From a virus: a DNA stretch of 43,138 bases. The first letter of the stretch is position 1, and each line of letters starts with the position of its first letter. The stretch lies in UHGV virus genome UHGV-0213559. One strand, given 5' to 3'. Shown one piece after another: positions 8,982-18,463 of the stretch. The notes under the pieces are model-generated. The model ran no database searches. It was given only the letters and a program-made list of their open reading frames with translations, and was not told where the DNA came from. Both the position numbers and the translations under genes were made by a program.

Positions 8982-9658
8982 GCAAATACACCGAACTAAT
9001 CACGAACTATCACGCCACCAAACCTAAATTTCTTGCACATGCTGATCTGATGACCAGGCCGCTTATTGATGTTGCGGCTGCCACCAGAGGGCTGATTACT
9101 GCATTTGATATTGACTCCGCGGTTGGTGTGCAACTTGACATTCTTGGATTGTGGATCGGACGTAGCCGTGTTGTCAGCCAGCCTATCTCAAGTGTCTATT
9201 TCAGCTGGGATACCGACGGGCTTGGGTATGATCAGGGTGTATGGCAGGGGCCATACGATCCTGATTCAGGATACATGTATCTCAGCGATGAAACTTATCG
9301 TGTCATTCTTAAAGCGAAGATTGCGATTAATAACTGGGACGGACGGAATGATTCGCTTCCGGCAATCCTTGACGCTGCAACAGCAGGATCCGGACTGCGA
9401 ATGCAGATTGTCGATAACCAGGACATGACGATATCGGTCTGGGTCTTTCCTGATACAGATATTTCAGATGTATCGCGTGAGTTAATTGCGGCAATTAAAC
9501 AGGGGTATCTCACAGTAAAAGCCGCCGGGGTATGGGCGGGTGGCATTGAAACACCTTCGGTTGAAACCCCATCGGAAGGTTCAAAATTTTTTGGTTTTGA
9601 TATGGATAACGAATTTATCAGTGGTTTTGATGTAGGGGCATGGGGAGTATTACTCTGA
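8978..9658 (+). CDS. tail protein I-like (baseplate)
   Basis: 226-aa ORF overlapping the J-like stop, upstream of the tail fibre. Confidence 0.45.
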
Positions 9659-10734
9659 TGACAAAAAATGACTTTAAAGCATTCGCAACGGGTAAAAATG
9701 CCAATGTTATGTCGCAGGAGGAATGGGAAGCGTTGCCTGCGCTTTTATCCGGATTTACAGCAGGGAAAGCATCCAGTGCGCAAGTCAATAAGGTTATTCG
9801 GCAGGCCAGCTTTATTGCATCTGCAATAGCACAATATACAGCAAATGAAAGTGGACTGGATGTACAGGATGATGGCGATCAGGCCGGCTTTATCGCAAAA
9901 ATGTCGTCTGCATTAGATAAGAACTATCAGAGAATTAATGCCATACTTACCGCACTTGCTAATCTTTCAGCATCCGAAAACAAATTACCGTATTTTACCA
10001 ATCAAGATACCGCTAATTTGGCTGACCTGACACAGGTTGGGCGAGATATTTTGGCAAAAAGCTCTGTTGCTGATGTCCTTAAATATCTTGGTCTGGAAGA
10101 TAATTCGACCTTTCCTGTAGGTGCCCCGATCCCGTGGCCATCAGATACAGTTCCATCTGGTTATACTCTGATGCAGGGACAGACTTTTGACAAGTCTGCA
10201 TACCCGAAACTTGCAGCCGCTTATCCGTCAGGCGTGATCCCTGATATGCGTGGCTGGACGATTAAGGGCAAGCCCGCCAGTGGTCGTACCGTATTGTCTC
10301 AGGAACAGGACGGCATTAAATCGCACACCCACAGCGCCAGCGTATCCAGTACGGATTTGGGTACGAAAACCACATCGTCGTTTGATTACGGGACGAAAAC
10401 CACCTCACTATTTGACTATGGGACCAAAACTACCAGTAACGCCGGGAGTCACACGCATTCAATACCAACATCAGATGGTGCAAACCAGGGGGGGAAAATT
10501 CCACTGACATCTGGGCGTCTGGCAACTCAATATACATCAGCAACAACAGGTTCCTCTGGCTCACATTCTCATACTGTAGGTATTGGTTCTCATCAGCACA
10601 CTGTCGGTATTGGTGCACACACGCACTCCATTGCGATTGGCTCACATGGACACACCATCACCGTTAACGCTGCTGGTAACGCGGAAAACACCGTCAAAAA
10701 CATCGCATTTAACTATATTGTGAGGCTTGCATAA
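9658..10734 (+). CDS. tail fibre protein
   Basis: ATG at 9658 overlaps the preceding TGA (ORF track starts 9640 in frame); C-terminal half has tandem GTKTTS and SH-x-H-T[VI]-[GA]-IG repeats typical of fibre tips. Confidence 0.65.
10350..10665 (+). repeat. tandem coding repeats in the tail-fibre tip (3 x DYGTKTTS-like, 4 x H-x-H units)
   Basis: near-identical nucleotide units of about 30 nt (gggacgaaaaccac...) and about 27 nt (ggtattggt..ca.ca.cac) visible directly. Confidence 0.6.
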
Positions 10735-11312
10735 TGGCATTCAGAATGAGTGAACAATCACGAACCATCAAAATTTATAATCTGCTGGCCGGAACTAATG
10801 AATTTATTGGTGACAGTGACGCATATATTCCACCTCATACAGGTCTACCTGCAAACAGTACCGATATTGCACCGCCAGATATTCCGGCTGGCTTCGTGGC
10901 TGTTTTCAACACTGATGAGGCATCGTGGCATCTCGTTGAAGACCATCGGGGTAAAACCGTCTATGATGTGGCTTCCGGCGACGCGTTATTTATTTCTGAA
11001 CTTGGCCCATTACCGGAAAATGTCACCTGGTTATCCCCGGAAGGGGAGTTTCAGAAGTGGAACGGTACATCCTGGGTGAAAGATGCAGAAGCAGAAAAAC
11101 TGTTTCGGAACCAGGAGGCGGAAGAAACAAAAAACAGCCTGATGCAGGTAGCTAGCGAGCATATTGCGCCACTTCAGGATGCTGTAGATTTGGATATTGC
11201 GACGGAAGAAGAGGCATCGTTACTGGCTGCATGGAAGACATATCGGGTATTGTTGAATCGTGTTGATACAACAGTAGCAGCGGATATTGAGTGGCCAGTC
11301 GCCCCACAATAA
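10734..11312 (+). CDS. tail fibre assembly protein (Tfa / gpG-like)
   Basis: 192-aa ORF with ATG overlapping the fibre stop (TAATG); composition typical of lambdoid/P2 Tfa chaperones. Confidence 0.65.
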
Positions 11313-11355: not shown

Positions 11356-11961
11356 CTATTTATACAATACAACACCGCTCTTTTTAGTTATATATGTGCA
11401 GTTCGATGGTATATCTTTATTTATAAAAGACATTGCGCCTATTTTTACATTATCCCCGATTTTACGTGATAATCCAATGATGCAACAATTAGCTCCGATA
11501 TCAACGTTACTACCAATTTTTACTCTTGAACCAGGTATGTCACCATCTATCTGTCCAATCGTAGTATTCTGTCGTAACACCAGATTTTCACCAGCATCAA
11601 CAGCAAAATGAACAACAATTCCAGCGTGATGGGGAATTGTTAGCCCTTTTCCAATTTTTGCGCCCAGTCCAATCTCGCAACCAAATTTGTTAATTATTTT
11701 ATTGTTTAACTTTTTAGCAGCTTTCTTATGTAATTTATTACCATTAATATACATTTCGTTAGCCAGCCGCCACCAGAAAAGGAAATTCCTGTTACGCTGT
11801 TTTTTCTCTCTGAAAAGCCTCCAGATATTCATATGCTCCCGCCGTATTACTTCAGATTTCCAAAAGCTTTTTAAATCAGAAGAATTTCCAAGTAAAACAA
11901 AATGAATTGCTATTAAGTAAGATAACACGATAATCTCCTTAATTATTACTTTCGACCACAT
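11356..11961 (-). CDS. hexapeptide-repeat (left-handed beta-helix) acyltransferase, CysE/LacA-type
   Basis: 201 aa; C-terminal half shows repeated [LIV]-G-x-x-x-x hexads (IGLGAKIGKGLTIPHHAGIVVH..IGSNVDIGANCCIIG..IGDNVKIGAMSFI); N-terminal hydrophobic helix; strongly AT-rich. Confidence 0.55.
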   Translation of the reverse strand: MWSKVIIKEIIVLSYLIAIHFVLLGNSSDLKSFWKSEVIRREHMNIWRLFREKKQRNRNFLFWWRLANEMYINGNKLHKKAAKKLNNKIINKFGCEIGLGAKIGKGLTIPHHAGIVVHFAVDAGENLVLRQNTTIGQIDGDIPGSRVKIGSNVDIGANCCIIGLSRKIGDNVKIGAMSFINKDIPSNCTYITKKSGVVLYK

Positions 11962-12080: not shown

Positions 12081-12254
12081 AAAACACCAGAACAATGGGC
12101 GCAGGCTGGGCGATTAATTGCATCAGGAGTTCATCGCCAGAATGTGGCGATTATCTATGATGTTAGCGTAACGACTGTGTATAAGAAGTTTCCTGCAGGT
12201 GAAAATGAAAACATAGCACGTCGTATCCAAGTACGTGCCTCGGCTGTCTGGTAA
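12081..12254 (+). pseudogene. remnant of Hin/Gin/Pin-type serine DNA invertase (C-terminal HTH only)
   Basis: stop-bounded frame with no start codon encodes ...GVHRQNVAIIYDVSVTTVYKKFPAG..., resembling the Hin C-terminus (PRQQLAIIFGIGVSTLYRYFPAS); the catalytic N-terminal domain is absent. Confidence 0.5.
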
Positions 12255-12289
12255 GCTTGTAAAAATCTTGAACAGGGAGTGGAGCATTT

Positions 12290-12937
12290 CTATGAAGCTA
12301 ATTTGTTTAATTTTATTTGTAGTGACTTTACTTCTTGGTCGATAATGTTGAATCCCTTATTGACTGCATCTCTTAGCTCTGCATCAATATTTTTTATCCC
12401 TTGAGCATAATCTACCATTACATTTATTTTTGCATCATGTAATCTCTTATACATGGTTTTATCTTTGTTATTGTCTGCCATGCCAATAAGGATTTTTTCA
12501 TAATCCTCAATGAGTTTGTTGTTTCCTTTAAATGATTGTATTAATGAACGTGAATATGTGTATATATTAATTATTGAGTCTCTAGCAGAATCATTTAGTT
12601 TTGCAATGACATTCGCATTTTGCTCATAGAATGTGAAATTATCATCCCCTACAGGGAAAGTGAGAATCAACATTTGTCCCGGTTTGATATTATCAATGTG
12701 TGTTTTCATCCTTTTATTATATAAATTGATTAGGGTGAAAACTTCTCCCTTAACTCCTTTTAATACTGAAAGTTGTAATTCAAGGGATTCTCTTTCTGTC
12801 CCTACTTTAGACAGCTTAGCTTGTTGGGTAACTCCTTTTAGGGTAAACCATCCGCCAATAAGAGTACCAACTAGAGCTGTGAGGGAGGAGGATAACCATC
12901 CAGGAATACTATTTAAAAGATTACTAAATTCACTCAT
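12290..12937 (-). CDS. hypothetical membrane-anchored protein (215 aa)
   Basis: ORF-track ORF; one N-terminal hydrophobic helix (WLSSSLTALVGTLIGGWFTL); very AT-rich; cargo position between tail fibre genes and attP/int. Confidence 0.5.
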   Translation of the reverse strand: MSEFSNLLNSIPGWLSSSLTALVGTLIGGWFTLKGVTQQAKLSKVGTERESLELQLSVLKGVKGEVFTLINLYNKRMKTHIDNIKPGQMLILTFPVGDDNFTFYEQNANVIAKLNDSARDSIINIYTYSRSLIQSFKGNNKLIEDYEKILIGMADNNKDKTMYKRLHDAKINVMVDYAQGIKNIDAELRDAVNKGFNIIDQEVKSLQIKLNKLAS

Positions 12938-12995
12938 TATAAGTACTCGCTAATATTGAACGATATATATATCAAATTATTATAAAACTCGTCAG

Positions 12996-13274
12996 CTACT
13001 GGAGAAGGCTACCTGAACTTCGATCTATTCCTGCATCCATATAGTTGATGGTCTTCTGGAGCTCTTCGATTAGGGCAACAGCTTTTGCTCGAGAAATGCA
13101 TATTAGTTGATCCGGAAATTCTTGTAAGGGCCAGTTTGGTATACAGGCCATGTTATCAGTGAAGGATGCAGACAAGTAAACTTCATTGGTAACCAGAGAA
13201 TAGCTTACCTCAAAATTGGTGAGTTCCGGCAAACTGCTAACGTTTGACTCTTTTCTGCGCATAATATTATCCAT
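12996..13274 (-). CDS. hypothetical protein (start uncertain; ORF track extends to 13430 from a GTG)
   Basis: AT-rich ORF upstream of and co-oriented with 12290-12937; no convincing SD for any candidate start. Confidence 0.3.
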   Translation of the reverse strand: MDNIMRRKESNVSSLPELTNFEVSYSLVTNEVYLSASFTDNMACIPNWPLQEFPDQLICISRAKAVALIEELQKTINYMDAGIDRSSGSLLQ

Positions 13275-13430
13275 GACTGTGATTATGTACAGGTGATGGT
13301 CTTCAATTTCGAAGAGGGAGTCAAGGGGGAGTCTCAAATGAACCGTTATAGAAAGGGGGAGGATCTTTGTGTTGCTGAACTTATGCAAAATTTTTTTGCA
13401 CCATAAATCCAACAACACATTCAATAACAC

Positions 13431-13727
13431 ATTGCTGTATCACTATGAAAATAAGTGTGTTTTTATTTGATTTCACACATATCACAATTAATACAGCGTT
13501 TAGTAATTAGTAAAGACATTTCAATGGATTACCGTTAAATCAATTTAAAATCAGTAAGTTGTATCGAGTTTGTATGCTTTACTGTCATTAACTTACTGTA
13601 TGTTGATCCAGTGTATTTAACCTTGATAAACTCAGTCCAGCAACACAAAACCGCAACACATTGCATTTTGTCCCGTAAAAAAGACTTGTATGTGTGAGCT
13701 TGTTTTCTGCGCCTACGCAGATAAGGA
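13431..13727. other. candidate attP region upstream of int
   Basis: AT-rich non-coding stretch immediately 5' of the integrase; inverted 9-mers CAGTAAGTT (13552-13560) and AACTTACTG (13590-13598), each followed by GTAT. Confidence 0.3.
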
Positions 13728-13733
13728 TTGAGA

Positions 13734-15131
13734 ATGCCGCGCACTGTAACACATAATCCGGATAGCCCCAATAATGACGATGTTTTAGCCGCATCCGAAA
13801 AATGGGACGCCTGTAAACCCCCCTATACCAGCGCACACATGAAAATCTGTGTTGCTGCCGCCAAAATCATCCTCGCTGCTTCCGGCGTGGCTCGCCGTTC
13901 CAAATACGAAAAAGAGAACTATCTCCGTATCGATTTCAGCAAAGCCGGTAAGGTTACATTTTACGCCGAGTTTCCAAAAAAGATGGGCCTCAAAGGTAAA
14001 AAGCTCGGCGAGTGGCCGGAGCTCGCTATCCAGCTGGCGCGCGAAAAAGCGCTAGGTATGGCTGACGGTGGCCTGCGGGCAGAGTCCGTACATGCAGCGC
14101 TGGAAATGTACCGGGATGACCTCAAAGCCAAAGTCGCCCGGCAGAAGCTGAGCCCGGACAGTTTCACAACCTACGGGGTGCGTATCGACCGGATTAAAGC
14201 AACGTTCGGCGAGCGCGAGGTGTTCAGCGACGTAACATACAATCGGCTGGTGGAAGTGCTGGACGAGTGGATCGCCACTCGCTCGAACAATAACGCCCTG
14301 GAGTTGTTTGCCGAGCTCCGTCGGTTCTGGAAGTTCTGTGCACCTACTCTTTGCAACGGCCGCAATGTTGCCGCCAGTCTGCCAGATGATTATGTTTCCT
14401 CCCGCGTACAGAAACCTACCCCCACACGGCTTTTTACCGATATTGAATCAATCGCCCGACTCTGGCTCAATGTTGCTGCCTGCACCTCTGTACACCAGAA
14501 GAATGCTGTTCGCTTCATGATCATCACTGGCGTTCGTCCGATTAATGTCCATAACCTGCGCTGGGACTACGTTCACGAGGAGGCTGGTGAAATTGTTTAT
14601 CCGGAAGGGGTTATCGGCATGCGAGGGGCTATGAAAACACAAAAGGCTTTCCGCCTGCCGATAACACCTGAGATCCGGCGGATTATCGACGAGCAGAAAG
14701 CCTGGCGTGATTCAGTTCCTGAGTGCAACAGGGATTATGTATTTTTGCAGCCACGTGATCCAATGCAGCCATTTTCAAAACGATCACTGGATAAGCTGGT
14801 GAAAACATACAGCCCGGACGGGGCTGTAAAAGGAATAAAACATGATGGGACTGTTAAAGGGAAAGACGGTGCATTTAATACGATGTGCCGTAAATTCCTT
14901 AAGAGCAATGTTATTGCCTTGATGAAGGAAAGAGGCTATTCCCGATCAGACCGAAGGGAAATCAGCCTCCTTTGCCTTCACCACTCCAGCAAGTCAGATG
15001 ACCCGATGGCAGAACATTACGACTTTTCTGATGAGATTTTGCAGGAAGAGATTGCGTTAAAGCGCGAAGCTTTCGAGGCTCACGAGCGGAGCATACTTGC
15101 GCAGGTTGCATTGCTACGGCGGCGAGGTTAA
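13734..15131 (+). CDS. int: tyrosine integrase (P4-like family)
   Basis: 465 aa from ATG 13734 with AAGGA SD (ORF track starts at TTG 13728); length, composition and position next to an AlpA-like gene fit a phage integrase. Confidence 0.75.
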   Translation: MPRTVTHNPDSPNNDDVLAASEKWDACKPPYTSAHMKICVAAAKIILAASGVARRSKYEKENYLRIDFSKAGKVTFYAEFPKKMGLKGKKLGEWPELAIQLAREKALGMADGGLRAESVHAALEMYRDDLKAKVARQKLSPDSFTTYGVRIDRIKATFGEREVFSDVTYNRLVEVLDEWIATRSNNNALELFAELRRFWKFCAPTLCNGRNVAASLPDDYVSSRVQKPTPTRLFTDIESIARLWLNVAACTSVHQKNAVRFMIITGVRPINVHNLRWDYVHEEAGEIVYPEGVIGMRGAMKTQKAFRLPITPEIRRIIDEQKAWRDSVPECNRDYVFLQPRDPMQPFSKRSLDKLVKTYSPDGAVKGIKHDGTVKGKDGAFNTMCRKFLKSNVIALMKERGYSRSDRREISLLCLHHSSKSDDPMAEHYDFSDEILQEEIALKREAFEAHERSILAQVALLRRRG

Positions 15132-15328
15132 TACTGGCTGCGACACTTTTGAATAAAAGCGTCGACATTTCGGCGCTCATAACGAACTACTTTTGCACTG
15201 AAACGAATTGGTCCCAGGATAGCCCGATGACGATGCTTAATATTCCACTCACATAGCGTTTTCTGTGTAATACCTAACTTTTGGCATACTTCATCCGGGG
15301 TGAGTAAATCGTCGGGTTTCTCGCTCAT
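15128..15328 (-). CDS. xis: AlpA-family excisionase / DNA-binding regulator
   Basis: 66 aa from internal ATG (MSEKPDDLLTPDEVCQKLGITQKTLCEW...); helix-turn-helix-like; its start overlaps the stop of the upstream helicase gene. Confidence 0.55.
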   Translation of the reverse strand: MSEKPDDLLTPDEVCQKLGITQKTLCEWNIKHRHRAILGPIRFSAKVVRYERRNVDAFIQKCRSQY

Positions 15329-16722
15329 GCTATACCTCTCTTTTTCATGGCATCGAGCAGGATGTCCTGCACTGTTCGTTTTGAGTTGCGCCGCTCCATC
15401 ACCATTTCGTCCATAGTGTCGGCGGCAATAATGTGGTGAATGAACACCGGGCGGTTGTGTCCGGCCTGAATCTGCCGGGTTGGCCCGATGCGTTCGATAA
15501 TTTGTTGGTACTGCTCCAGATCCCACCAGTGCGAGAAAAACACCAGTATGTTTCCGCCGTCCTGCATGTTCAGGCCGTGGCCCGCGCTGGCTGGGTGTGC
15601 AAAGAGAACAGGAATCTTTCCGGAATTCCAGTCGCGCAGTGTCTGTGGATCCTGGTCGAGGTGACGACTGCGAGGGAATGCTTTAAGCAAGCGTTCAAGA
15701 TCGTGTTTCCAGTGATAAGCAACCAGCACAGGTGCGCCAGCTGCTTCGGTCAGTATGCTGTCCAGCGCCTGTAGTTTGGTGTCATGCAGTTCTGACCAAC
15801 TTCCGGTGTCGTCTGTGTATACTGCGCCACTGGCGATTTGAAGACACTTCAGTGTCTTTGCCGCGGCGTTCGGTGCTTCGATGCCTTCGCCATTCAGCTC
15901 GAGGAACATTTCCTTTTCCATTTCACGATACTGCTGACGGGCCTTCGGCGGCATATCCACGCGGATTACGTTATGGATGGGGTCTTTGATATCGAACCAG
16001 TCGGCCGCATCCAGCGAGAGGGTCACATCGGCTAACGCTCGCTGTATTTCAGCCTGTGAGTGAGCAAACGGCTCCAGTTTGGTCCAGCTCTGCCCCGGAA
16101 ACTGTATCGAGTTGAACCAGCGTGAGGTAAACGCGCCGTAAGTGCGCCCGAGACGTTGTCCCTGGTCCACAAACCACGATTGTCCCCACAAATCTACCAG
16201 GCCGTTCGGTGCTGGCGTACCGGTGAGATTTATCCAGCGCCGGACATACTTATGCGCCACTTTGCCCAGCGCCGCCGCGCGCTTACCACCACCTCGCAGC
16301 CGGAAGGATTTTAGCCGGGTGCTTTCATCCGGAATGACAGTACCGAACGGCCATCGTTCTCCCAATTCCTCAACCAGCCAGACAAGGTTATCGTAGTTGA
16401 TTGTGAACACGCTCGCGTTGCTGTTCGCCAGCGCTGTAGAGCGCGCTTTGGCGTTACCGATGATCGGCTGTACCTCAATATTACGCAGATGCCCCCATTT
16501 AACAGCTTCATCAGGCCAGGTGCTTGCTGCAACGCGTAGCGGCGCGAGGACCAGCGCGGGGCGTGTTTCTGTTCCAGCCATGAAAAGATCTTCCAGCGTG
16601 GTGAGTGTCGCTACGGTTTTACCCATTCCCATACCTGCCCAGATGTTGCAGCGCATAATGTCGACTTGATGATTGATGATGAGATCTTGGTAGGGGTGAG
16701 GTGAAAATATAGCATAGTCCAT
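15325..16722 (-). CDS. SNF2/DEAD-like superfamily 2 helicase
   Basis: Walker A GMGMGKT and motif II DEST visible in the translated ORF. Confidence 0.7.
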   Translation of the reverse strand: MDYAIFSPHPYQDLIINHQVDIMRCNIWAGMGMGKTVATLTTLEDLFMAGTETRPALVLAPLRVAASTWPDEAVKWGHLRNIEVQPIIGNAKARSTALANSNASVFTINYDNLVWLVEELGERWPFGTVIPDESTRLKSFRLRGGGKRAAALGKVAHKYVRRWINLTGTPAPNGLVDLWGQSWFVDQGQRLGRTYGAFTSRWFNSIQFPGQSWTKLEPFAHSQAEIQRALADVTLSLDAADWFDIKDPIHNVIRVDMPPKARQQYREMEKEMFLELNGEGIEAPNAAAKTLKCLQIASGAVYTDDTGSWSELHDTKLQALDSILTEAAGAPVLVAYHWKHDLERLLKAFPRSRHLDQDPQTLRDWNSGKIPVLFAHPASAGHGLNMQDGGNILVFFSHWWDLEQYQQIIERIGPTRQIQAGHNRPVFIHHIIAADTMDEMVMERRNSKRTVQDILLDAMKKRGIA

Positions 16723-16789: not shown

Positions 16790-17668
16790 ATGACCTCAGC
16801 TTATACAGATGTACAGCAAGAAGAAAATATTACTGATAAATTAGTTGTTAAATATGATGGTCCCGCACTAGCAGATCATAAAATAGATTTGGATGTTTTA
16901 ACTGAGTCATTGAATGGACTAAACAACTTGCTTAAAGAAGTTAATTTGGTTGTCAATGGCACTAGTGAGTGTATTAATGTTGAGGTTGAGCCTTTTAAGG
17001 AAGGCTCATTTGAGTATTTGATTGATGTTATTCAAAATCCACTTGACCATTTGAATATATTAAGCATTATTGGGCTTGGAGGTACAACTGCACTCGCAGC
17101 AGGAAATACTCTCATTGACTTAATTCGTCAGATCAATGGTAGGCAAATAAAACGGTTGACTTTAACAGCGGAAGGAGACTGTAAAATAGTTATGGATGAT
17201 GGTGAGGAAATTATAGCCCCGTCATATTTCCGACCTTTACTTGCCTCACCAAGCATACGCAAATCCTTATCGAAGTTAATTCATAAACCTTTGCAAAAGG
17301 AAGGATACGAATCGCTTAAAATTTCAACTCAACAGGGGGTTGAGCTGATTAAGGTGCACGAAGATAATATTGAACCGTTCAGATATAGGCGCGTTCCTGT
17401 AGTGCAGTCCTTGTCTGAAAGGGTGATTGAAGAGGCTCTAATCACATTTTTGACTATTCATAAGGATAAAAACACAGGCTGGCGAGTCAACTATGGCGAT
17501 GACACAATCAGCGTGTCTATAGAAGATACTGAGTTCTTACAACGTGTTAGTACGGGAAGAGAACCTGGTGTTTTTAGTGATGCTTACTTCGTTGATTTGC
17601 TCGTCCGTGAGAACTTGAATTCGCTGGACAAAACGTACATAGTTGTTAAAGTACACGGCATCTTATAG
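16790..17668 (+). CDS. hypothetical protein (292 aa), first gene of an AT-rich plus-strand cassette
   Basis: AAGGA SD 7 nt upstream of the ATG; no recognisable catalytic motif; opposite in orientation to the flanking replication operon. Confidence 0.5.
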   Translation: MTSAYTDVQQEENITDKLVVKYDGPALADHKIDLDVLTESLNGLNNLLKEVNLVVNGTSECINVEVEPFKEGSFEYLIDVIQNPLDHLNILSIIGLGGTTALAAGNTLIDLIRQINGRQIKRLTLTAEGDCKIVMDDGEEIIAPSYFRPLLASPSIRKSLSKLIHKPLQKEGYESLKISTQQGVELIKVHEDNIEPFRYRRVPVVQSLSERVIEEALITFLTIHKDKNTGWRVNYGDDTISVSIEDTEFLQRVSTGREPGVFSDAYFVDLLVRENLNSLDKTYIVVKVHGIL

Positions 17669-17691
17669 TAGATTCACATGGGGAGGGGGCT

Positions 17692-17940
17692 ATGATTGCT
17701 TTTGCTTTTTGGCTGGCTTTTTTTAGCCTGCTTCCCGTACTATATTGGGTTCTTAAGATGGGGTTTGACCGGTTACGCTTTGCGCTTATGCCTAAACATC
17801 ATCTTGTTCTTGAATGTGTTGACTCAGAAGGAGTTGTCCGTCGCGATGTCGTTGATGTCTCCTCTGATGATGAATTTTACAAAATTGCAATGAATGCCAT
17901 TCGTGCTGGAAGATCAGTCAAAGGAGGGACGTTTGAGTAG
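17692..17940 (+). CDS. small membrane protein (82 aa)
   Basis: N-terminal hydrophobic helix (IAFAFWLAFFSLLPVLYWVL); 23 nt downstream of the 292-aa gene. Confidence 0.4.
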   Translation: MIAFAFWLAFFSLLPVLYWVLKMGFDRLRFALMPKHHLVLECVDSEGVVRRDVVDVSSDDEFYKIAMNAIRAGRSVKGGTFE

Positions 17941-18463
17941 CGCTTCTAAACCTGATAGCTACGAAAAAGTCCCTCTGATTTCTAATGTTGCTGCTGGTGG
18001 CATCATTGGTTTTTTAACATTACTGGTGTCCTCGTGGGACGGTCGTTTTCCGTATATTGGTTCTGATTTAAATACAATAAAGCCATTTCTTTTATTAATG
18101 CTTCCCAGTTGCGCTATGTTTCTGGCGCATTGGATAAAGTCGATTGGGTTTAAATGGTCCTTAGGTAGCGTTAATCGACAGTTATTAAGCATTAATAAGA
18201 AGAAAGAAAAAGAACTTCGCCGTGATATTGAAAAGTACAAAAATGTTATTTCTAATGAAAAGATAGAGGACTTTAAAAGTCAACTTGAACAAGTATTACA
18301 AGATCGTCATGATATTATTTCTAATAATTACGCACAGAAACTAAGAGAAAGAAATTATACGCAAGAAAAATATCATGAGCATAAACAAACCGCTGCAAAT
18401 GATAATATTGAGCTGCAAAGCATACTGGAGAATCAGAAGTTCAATCAAAAAGGCATTGACTAA
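17933..18463 (+). CDS. membrane protein with charged coiled-coil-like C-terminus (about 176 aa)
   Basis: strong AAGGAGGG SD 5 nt before an in-frame TTG at 17933 (ORF track starts at ATG 17894); two hydrophobic segments then a Lys/Glu-rich tail. Confidence 0.4.
   Translation: MSSASKPDSYEKVPLISNVAAGGIIGFLTLLVSSWDGRFPYIGSDLNTIKPFLLLMLPSCAMFLAHWIKSIGFKWSLGSVNRQLLSINKKKEKELRRDIEKYKNVISNEKIEDFKSQLEQVLQDRHDIISNNYAQKLRERNYTQEKYHEHKQTAANDNIELQSILENQKFNQKGID

Follow-up and report, generated by a model that had tools for sequence, protein, structure and literature searches.

Organization of the locus

The 43,138-nucleotide virus genome UHGV-0213559 (the whole stretch analyzed, hereafter the window) comes from a phage related to SEN34 of Salmonella (genus Brunovirus; SEN34-like). 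Between its tail fiber module and its phage attachment site (attP) lie two genes on the minus strand, encoding proteins of 215 and 88 amino acids, which are the subject of this report. They are two unrelated, independent modules, neighbors at the right-hand end of a prophage of the SEN34-like type, which integrates into the 3' end of yfhL. The right end of the TB06051 prophage matches the window at 99.4% identity across 1.6 kb, and because the length of that prophage (∼43.2 kb) equals that of the window, the window is the entire phage genome, opened at another point. The region has matches in prophages of 183 out of 5426 complete E. coli genomes. The genes follow in the order tail fiber, tail fiber assembly, hexapeptide acetyltransferase, invertase remnant, 215-residue gene, 88-residue gene, attP and integrase (Table 1).

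An earlier note on this DNA (the original prediction) had described a 215-residue protein with a single N-terminal membrane anchor, encoded in one of the most AT-rich regions of the window and immediately next to a candidate attP and the integrase. All of this was borne out: the open reading frame (ORF) was confirmed together with its anchor, the sole hydrophobic helix of the protein (about residues 15 to 37), the 500-bp bin at 12501-13000 has the lowest GC content of the window (0.328), and the attachment core beside the integrase gene could be refined. The GC content is 32.7% for the 215-residue gene, 43% for the 88-residue gene and 49% for the whole window.

Table 1. Features of the window from the tail fiber module to the integrase gene
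Feature	Position	Strand	Remarks
Tail fiber	9640-10734	+	
Tail fiber assembly	10734-11312	+	
Hexapeptide-repeat (CysE/WcaB-like) acetyltransferase, neighboring cargo	11356-11961	-	Pfam Hexapep, NCBIfam EpsC/CysE/WcaB, PHROG 2154
Pin/Gin-type invertase remnant	12084-12254	+	C-terminal helix-turn-helix (HTH) only; convergent with the 215-residue gene
215-residue cargo gene	12290-12937	-	Transmembrane (TM) helix and helical bundle; large uncharacterized family
Spacer, 58 bp	12938-12995	-	Between the 215- and 88-residue genes
88-residue gene, PHROG 17793	12996-13262	-	Predicted SOS-controlled backbone gene
LexA (SOS) box, CTGTACATAATCACAG	13277-13292		14 nt before the ATG of the 88-residue gene
Putative promoter of the 88-residue gene	13296-13324	-	-35 TTGACT (13319-13324), 17-nt spacer, -10 GACCAT (13296-13301)
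attP	13366-13754		Core 13472-13509; junction mapping and repeats
Candidate arm-type repeats, (G)CAACACA	13368-13375 (inverted), 13408-13431, 13636-13661, 13743-13754		On both sides of the core
Tyrosine integrase	13728-15131	+	Pfam Phage_integrase; annotated "tyrosine-type recombinase/integrase" beside yfhL at attL by the Prokaryotic Genome Annotation Pipeline (PGAP)

Gene model and conservation of the 88-residue gene

The original prediction left the start of the upstream ORF uncertain, at 13274 or 13430. The gene is real and both starts are wrong: the starts of its orthologs place the initiation codon at 13262, giving a protein of 88 residues that begins MRRKES, not the reading of 92 or 144 residues. 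The longest reading of the ORF that ends at 12996 extends to 13430. The match to PHROG 17793 (expect value (E) 9e-45) begins at Met 13262, and all 61 homologs, found in Escherichia, Salmonella and Citrobacter, start at the equivalent methionine with the pattern M-x-x-x-ESNVSSL. The ortholog of phage vB_EcoM-606R2 (93% identical) has CTG in place of the ATG at 13274 and in-frame stops in the extension; the DNA upstream of the gene in Salmonella and Citrobacter is unrelated and stop-rich in the extension frame. Read against these loci, the 144-residue version is spurious and its additional stretch non-coding; 13263-13430 holds the putative promoter, the LexA box and integrase arm-type repeats.

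Compared with a close copy, the 88-residue gene has a ratio of nonsynonymous to synonymous substitution rates (dN/dS) of 0.19, indicating purifying selection; against distant copies the proportion of nonsynonymous differences (pN) is 0.10 to 0.19, with the synonymous proportion (pS) saturated. The dN/dS of the 215-residue gene is 0.09 to 0.18. Judged from these substitution patterns (dN/dS 0.09 to 0.19), both ORFs are genuine genes under purifying selection. In most complete E. coli genomes PGAP does not annotate the 88-residue gene, despite its conservation and the selection acting on it, and this omission, like the spurious 144-residue reading, is what one or both ORFs might show if they were chance ORFs or, as the original prediction had allowed, decayed fragments of a larger gene. 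We give this idea practically no credence, and for the 215- and 88-residue frames it is refuted by the dN/dS values, by full-length conservation of both across genera and by confident fold predictions for both products. The AlphaFold 2 (AF2) model of the 88-residue protein (predicted local distance difference test (pLDDT) 73.8) is a β-β-β-helix arrangement with no TM helix, and the protein matches no profile of PADLOC-DB v2.0.0.

Predicted SOS control of the 88-residue gene

A LexA box precedes the ATG of the 88-residue gene. It is the single match to CTGT-N8-ACAG in the 43-kb window, where 0.45 are expected, and the same pattern, applied to control loci, recovers the boxes preceding umuD and dinI. 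The box lies at equal distance in every ortholog locus fetched, and the only other element common to the surroundings is the TTGACT of the putative -35; this hexamer keeps its position in loci from Salmonella and Citrobacter with otherwise unrelated DNA. In IMG/VR, we scanned 64 loci of the gene, 36 of which extended 45 nt or more upstream; the box is present in 33 of the 36, and the three without it are truncated copies. It begins 3 nt downstream of the putative -10, as we read the promoter from the sequence. Among the divergent clades (identity no higher than 53%), 21 of 28 loci have dinI immediately after the gene, with annotated examples in phages Fostie and YeP1; it is present neither in the SEN34-like clade nor in this window, the linkage being confined to divergent relatives.

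Predicted LexA control of the 88-residue gene is well supported by this conservation. The gene would be silent in an undamaged lysogen, because the LexA operator overlaps its promoter, and would be turned on by DNA damage. Its product would most likely modulate the SOS response or the induction switch, acting on RecA or DinI or serving as an auxiliary or trans-acting antirepressor. By analogy, we class it as a gene that works like a LexA-controlled induction/SOS modulator outside the Tum family, because the protein has no detectable homology to Tum or GftA and because the CI repressor of this phage (25941-26633) combines an HTH_3 domain with a Peptidase_S24 autocleavage domain.

Some observations weigh against an induction function under this promoter: a consensus promoter scanner made no call at the site, the -10 hexamer is weak, and CI here, like the YeP1 repressor (annotated as LexA-like), is of the S24 type. 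It is possible, though we regard it as doubtful, that the 88-residue protein is a true antirepressor under LexA control, in the functional class of Tum and GftA, acting on its own CI or on the repressors of co-resident prophages. Its small size, the LexA box over its promoter and the dinI linkage in relatives reproduce the layout of tum in phage 186 and of the split tum of PSP3 and Fels-2, and the gene is conserved at the prophage end of all SEN34-like phages. An antirepressor is, however, not required where the repressor carries an autocleavage domain, as it does here and in YeP1, and the absence of homology to Tum and GftA also speaks against this reading.

A variable cargo slot beside a constant gene

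The 88-residue gene is the first gene inside att in all SEN34-like prophages, and the gene that comes next varies. SEN34 and Salmonella carry an acyltransferase_3 gene in this place, other relatives a GT4 glycosyltransferase or an unrelated 281-residue protein, and in Citrobacter the slot is empty, with the 88-residue gene directly convergent on the invertase. The stretch between the 88-residue gene and the tail fiber/invertase module is a true variable cargo slot of SEN34-like (Brunovirus) prophages. Among the 5426 complete E. coli genomes, the 215-residue gene is found in 80 and the backbone with the 88-residue gene in 121; the cargo is therefore variable. Homology to the vB_EcoM-606R2 locus, where the cargo is different, breaks at window position 12981, 15 bp past the stop codon of the 88-residue gene, and a cassette recombination junction lies at about this point, inside the spacer. 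A copy of the 215-residue gene (97% identical) is also found behind another allele of the 88-residue gene (90% identical, Salmonella-like; IMG/VR contigs L203 and L199), and therefore cargo or backbone recombines among SEN34-like phages.

These comparisons with related phages, which the original prediction had suggested, divide its proposal of a position for conversion or defense cargo. The slot and a mobile 215-residue cargo stand, since the 215-residue gene is present in some and absent from other collinear phages, as a moron would be; the 88-residue gene is constant, a conserved backbone gene under predicted LexA control, and drops out both as cargo and as a candidate for defense. The notion of a two-gene cargo pair fails, as each gene is found without the other, the 88-residue gene occurs with or without cargo, and it never accompanies the 215-residue family outside SEN34-like phages. 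A toxin-antitoxin-like or sensor-effector pair of the two ORFs is ruled out on the same ground.

The 215-residue gene has sequence of its own that could start transcription. Forty-one nucleotides upstream of its ATG, at 12979-12984, there is a consensus -10 hexamer, TATAAT; an Enterobacter ortholog has TATAAT at the identical distance (locus L004), and in Dickeya this conserved upstream motif contains the related TATAGT. No -35 was scored upstream, and the downstream hairpin is weak (z +1.25), no better than in shuffled sequence. The 58-bp spacer contains no terminator-like site, so that SOS read-through from the 88-residue gene into the 215-residue gene is possible in this phage, and SOS induction may raise expression of the latter from the upstream promoter.

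The 215-residue family on mobile elements

Close homologs of the 215-residue protein number 216 (215 to 223 residues, 60 to 75% identity) and come from more than 15 genera of Enterobacterales, including Dickeya, Enterobacter, Yersinia, Serratia, Morganella, Providencia, Proteus, Klebsiella and Citrobacter; all are annotated as hypothetical and have no Pfam domain. A profile search over 1.84 billion representatives identified remote relatives in 674 clusters at 50% identity (E ≤1e-3), nearly all of 185 to 235 residues and aligned end to end. A distant set of 71 members shares 19 to 31% identity, except for the two closest (54 and 46%). The GC content of the family gene is 33 to 37% in every context, compared with 38 to 60% for the flanks, a base composition typical of cargo.

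In all contexts examined the gene is solo. In most E. coli carriers it directly follows an intact pinE. In Enterobacter it lies in a chromosomal islet beside HigBA, in Dickeya in a region resembling an integrative and conjugative element (ICE) with CcdAB and a coupling protein, and in Morganella and Citrobacter prophages it is the final gene before the icd' att fragment. The Providencia copies, in lambdoid prophages, are co-directional with and directly behind cI and an HSDR_N gene, which is the position of rexAB in lambda. A Klebsiella copy belongs to a satellite-like element, next to the integrase and with adaptor and capsid genes. A paralog of 31% identity is carried by phage-plasmid-like replicons of ∼106 to 126 kb, antisense to its neighbors; these replicons are non-mobilizable, with IncFIB in the single one examined. 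A remote family member lies beside a ThsB-like TIR gene. The 215-residue gene is thus a self-contained, horizontally mobile, AT-rich single-gene cargo. Directly downstream of the homolog in the Klebsiella element (L022/L024 6660-6860) we also observed a run of G/C-rich repeats (GGGGAGGGG...CCCCC units) and, after it, AT-rich TTATTAGATCA repeats, which may be an origin or iteron region.

AF2 models the 215-residue protein with a pLDDT of 79.8 and a predicted template modeling score (pTM) of 0.70. The N-terminal TM helix runs on as a long helix to residue 82, followed by a conserved loop, FPVGDDNF, and two more long helices. Across the 71 distant members the TM helix keeps a small-xxx-small zipper, A21xxG24G/A25xxG28G29, and the polar and aromatic bundle residues conserved family-wide are E65, Y73, F101 (invariant), Y104, N107, R119, Y126, K/R130, N139, N140, Y177 and K182. 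Family members have a single TM helix preceded by a short N-terminal tail. C-terminal to this helix lysine and arginine average 3.0, versus 1.2 N-terminal to it, a bias seen in 57 of the 71 members. The protein is probably anchored in the inner membrane in an N-out/C-in orientation, with the bundle in the cytoplasm. The top structural matches of the model are sensor-type four-helix bundles.

The homology and structure searches that the original prediction had proposed gave a family for one protein, PHROG 17793 for the 88-residue protein, and no known family for the other. As far as sequence searches reach, neither protein belongs to any described family. The claim that neither resembles the glucosyltransferase-type conversion genes was upheld, with no glycosyl- or acyltransferase family match for either ORF (GtrA, glycosyltransferase and Acyl_transf_3 models of Pfam and NCBIfam) and without the multi-pass topology of serotype-conversion genes, the 215-residue protein having one TM helix and the 88-residue protein none. 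In PADLOC-DB v2.0.0 the 215-residue protein matched nothing, and its 71 distant relatives gave scattered sub-significant matches, with at most two members per model. Profile searches (A1 and A3) against PDB sequences returned chance matches only, and looking for accessions in papers yielded no match. A paper on the ST64B transcriptome has nothing on the 215-residue gene, and a lead from the literature, GiPD474 of Gifsy-1, turned out to be an unrelated ATPase-domain protein.

Possible functions of the 215-residue protein

From its context, defense appears the most plausible role of the 215-residue gene. We tentatively propose, at somewhat less than an even chance, that its product is a single-protein phage-exclusion or abortive-infection factor, on the basis of its positions and its base composition. 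The protein would be made in the lysogen and tethered to the inner membrane, where the bundle would recognize a phage-derived cue; oligomerization through the TM helix would next impair the membrane or stop an infection step linked to it. Several results count against this proposal. The protein has no match in Pfam, PADLOC, PHROGs, NCBIfam or PDB sequences, Foldseek against BFVD gave no match under E 0.001, and tblastn against 50,697 deposited phage genomes found no homolog; across PADLOC, Pfam, PHROGs, PDB and BFVD nothing ties it directly to defense. It has no enzymatic or pore-forming domain, its predicted topology is taken solely from the positive-inside rule, and two positions that are conserved family-wide, D134 and H185, are Q and D in the window clade.

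Other slot occupants modify the envelope (acyltransferase_3 and GT4, with the hexapeptide acetyltransferase also counted), which would suit lysogenic-conversion cargo that alters host physiology, for example as a membrane-tethered adaptor for an envelope, stress or signaling pathway. The best structural matches, to sensor-type bundles, and the lack of any match to a defense model fit this as well. We nevertheless consider it unlikely, given that the protein has no output or enzymatic domain and that a surface function is at odds with its predicted cytoplasmic orientation; the distribution over prophages, a satellite-like element, phage-plasmids and an ICE-like region in more than 15 genera, with the position behind cI, suits conflict between elements better than a host-specific trait. 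Quite unlikely, in our view, is a mainly SOS-induced function of the induction phase, exerted by read-through from the LexA promoter and resembling that of orf97 in phage 186 (superinfection shut-out or membrane tuning). The 215-residue gene does lie on the same strand 58 bp downstream of the 88-residue gene with no terminator-like site between them, an arrangement kept with two different alleles of the small gene, and in the LexA-repressed operon of 186 tum is followed by orf97. Yet no LexA box precedes the family gene in any other context, the gene has retained a TATAAT of its own, 41 nt ahead of the ATG, the Providencia copy follows cI, a lysogeny transcript, and the protein has no homology to orf97.

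The glycine-zipper TM helix is typical of oligomerizing or pore-forming small membrane proteins, the family is strictly tied to mobile elements, and toxin-antitoxin pairs (HigBA and CcdAB) are among its neighbors; an addiction or toxin-like membrane protein that stabilizes its elements and has no part in phage exclusion might look like this. No cognate antitoxin gene is conserved beside it in any context, however, and small membrane toxins do not resemble a 215-residue protein whose soluble domain is highly conserved, so that we hold this explanation to be very improbable. Identity as a spanin or holin was rejected, since the gene lies outside lysis cassettes and occurs also in non-phage contexts. 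Returning to the preferred exclusion or abortive-infection factor, a bolder version would make the family a new, widespread anti-phage family of membrane-anchored effectors, each acting as one protein, on prophages, satellites, phage-plasmids and ICEs that is outside all current defense catalogs and, in addition, wired here behind the 88-residue LexA regulator as an SOS-boosted exclusion operon, like tum-orf97 without the homology. We regard this combined proposal as speculative and rather unlikely.

Attachment site and neighboring genes

Homology to the prophage's right end breaks off at window position 13509 and homology to its left end begins at 13472. The 38 bp between these junctions are the duplicated att core and are identical to the 3' end of host yfhL. 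Exact copies of GCAACACA occur four times in the 43-kb window, every one inside 13368-13855, and the distribution of these and of the (G)CAACACA repeats is as would be expected of integrase arm sites. Between the arm repeats of attP and the promoter of the 88-residue gene we noted three copies of AAG(A/G)GGGAG (at 13312, 13323 and 13353, within 13312-13361), overlapping the -35, which could be a site for Int, Xis or integration host factor, or a promoter element; neither this motif nor the AAGGGGGAG repeats show window-wide enrichment. A short ORF with an HTH_17 (AlpA/excisionase-like) match lies just downstream of the integrase gene on the opposite strand (15128-15331, minus). Its product is likely the excisionase, and the 88-residue gene therefore need not be one. 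When the phage is integrated, yfhH, a host gene for a MurR/RpiR regulator, stops ∼65 bp outside attR (locus L001 7676-8524); because its transcription points toward the 88- and 215-residue genes, host read-through into the cargo is conceivable.

On the other side of the slot, the invertase remnant is annotated by PGAP in a near-identical prophage as a pseudogene, "HTH domain-containing, missing N-terminus". Where the remnant stands, most E. coli carriers have an intact pinE and an invertible tail fiber segment, and in the window phage this segment has been swapped for the hexapeptide acetyltransferase gene. The scores of the acetyltransferase against the Hexapep and EpsC/CysE/WcaB models are all under the equivalog cut-offs; DNA ∼90% identical to its gene adjoins tfa in phages Ro157c2YLVW and JL22 ("sacF"). 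A second AT-rich islet (GC content 0.33 to 0.43) was observed at 16790-18463. Its first gene (16790-17668) encodes a 292-residue protein with a match to PDC-S42, a candidate system of PADLOC (E 2.9e-40), and a weak one to DUF7946, and the two ORFs that come after it (17692-17940 and 17894-18463) encode small or medium, membrane-like products with no family match.

Implications

If the 215-residue family is defensive, it would be a compact one-gene system with ∼670 clusters at 50% identity that are invisible to annotation with PADLOC and Pfam, and its carriage by six or more kinds of mobile element in Enterobacterales of clinical relevance would bear on host range in phage therapy. The 88-residue family would be a new member of the prophage SOS regulon, a module of LexA box, small gene and dinI distinct from Tum and GftA, and may account for added control of induction or for cross-talk between prophages in phages with cleavable repressors. 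In practical terms, the gene model is corrected to 88 residues, attP is mapped and a cargo hotspot of SEN34-like phages is defined.

Comparison with known systems

The four-helix bundles of chemoreceptors (Tsr, 2d4u; Tar, 1lih) and DUF3829 resemble the 215-residue model at 5 to 12% identity and without sequence signal, and de novo designed bundles match it equally well. The likeness to a 4HB_MCP sensor domain is one of fold: the 215-residue protein has one TM helix, with no second TM helix or output domain, is predicted to face the cytoplasm, opposite to the orientation of the receptors, and has no Pfam match to this domain. The 88-residue fold was compared with the COMM domain, a likeness read at moderate model confidence that does not establish homology. 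The YeP1 relative of the 88-residue protein scores against BssS (PF13991; E 0.0045, 17.5 bits compared with a cut-off of 27), and in E. coli K-12 bssS follows dinI on the same strand (L049 3702-4488). Membership of the 88-residue family in BssS was rejected, since the window protein gave no match and hhalign against 45 BssS sequences gave a probability of 2.6%.

Membrane-anchored exclusion and abortive-infection (Abi) proteins of prophages include lactococcal AbiP, which has an N-terminal anchor, SieB of P22 and lambda, and RexB of lambda. The 215-residue gene resembles their genes as a solo, AT-rich accessory gene of temperate elements, found in lysogen-expressed or prophage-end slots and encoding a membrane-tethered product; it differs in that the protein is a plain helical bundle without similarity to Pfam or PADLOC families, SieB and Abi included. 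In prophage e14, the final gene ahead of the att site at icd is mcrA, which comes after pinE. The analogy with the 215-residue gene is positional alone, as McrA is an HNH nuclease with no similarity to the protein.

For the 88-residue gene, the nearest counterparts are LexA-controlled antirepressors. GftA and GfoA of the Gifsy prophages are such antirepressors, and the Gifsy repressors are not cleaved (PMC3121763). They too are small proteins of LexA-repressed operons that also contain dinI; in Gifsy, however, dinI comes first, the CI of our phage is of the S24 type, and the 88-residue protein has no homology to GftA. PSP3 and Fels-2 have a split tum, with an antirepressor followed by DinI (PMC3121763), and the divergent relatives of the 88-residue gene share this layout of a small first gene and then dinI. 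An hhalign comparison of the 88-residue protein with the antirepressor half of Tum gave a probability of 0.4%, and tblastn with two family members returned no record of 186, PSP3 or Fels-2. Set beside the Tum type, the 88-residue gene is a LexA-repressed small gene, as predicted, linked to dinI in its relatives, and its phage differs in having a cleavable repressor.

The operon of phage 186 is annotated in its record as p95-LexA-tum-orf97, with the remark on orf97 that "expression from plasmid blocks 186 infection" (L048 5021-6336). The present locus shares with it a LexA operator over the promoter, a start codon 14 to 20 nt downstream and a second gene of ∼215 to 245 residues. The product of orf97 has no detectable homology to the 215-residue protein, and the 186 operon offers a precedent, unrelated by homology, for a gene of exclusion type that follows a small gene under LexA control.

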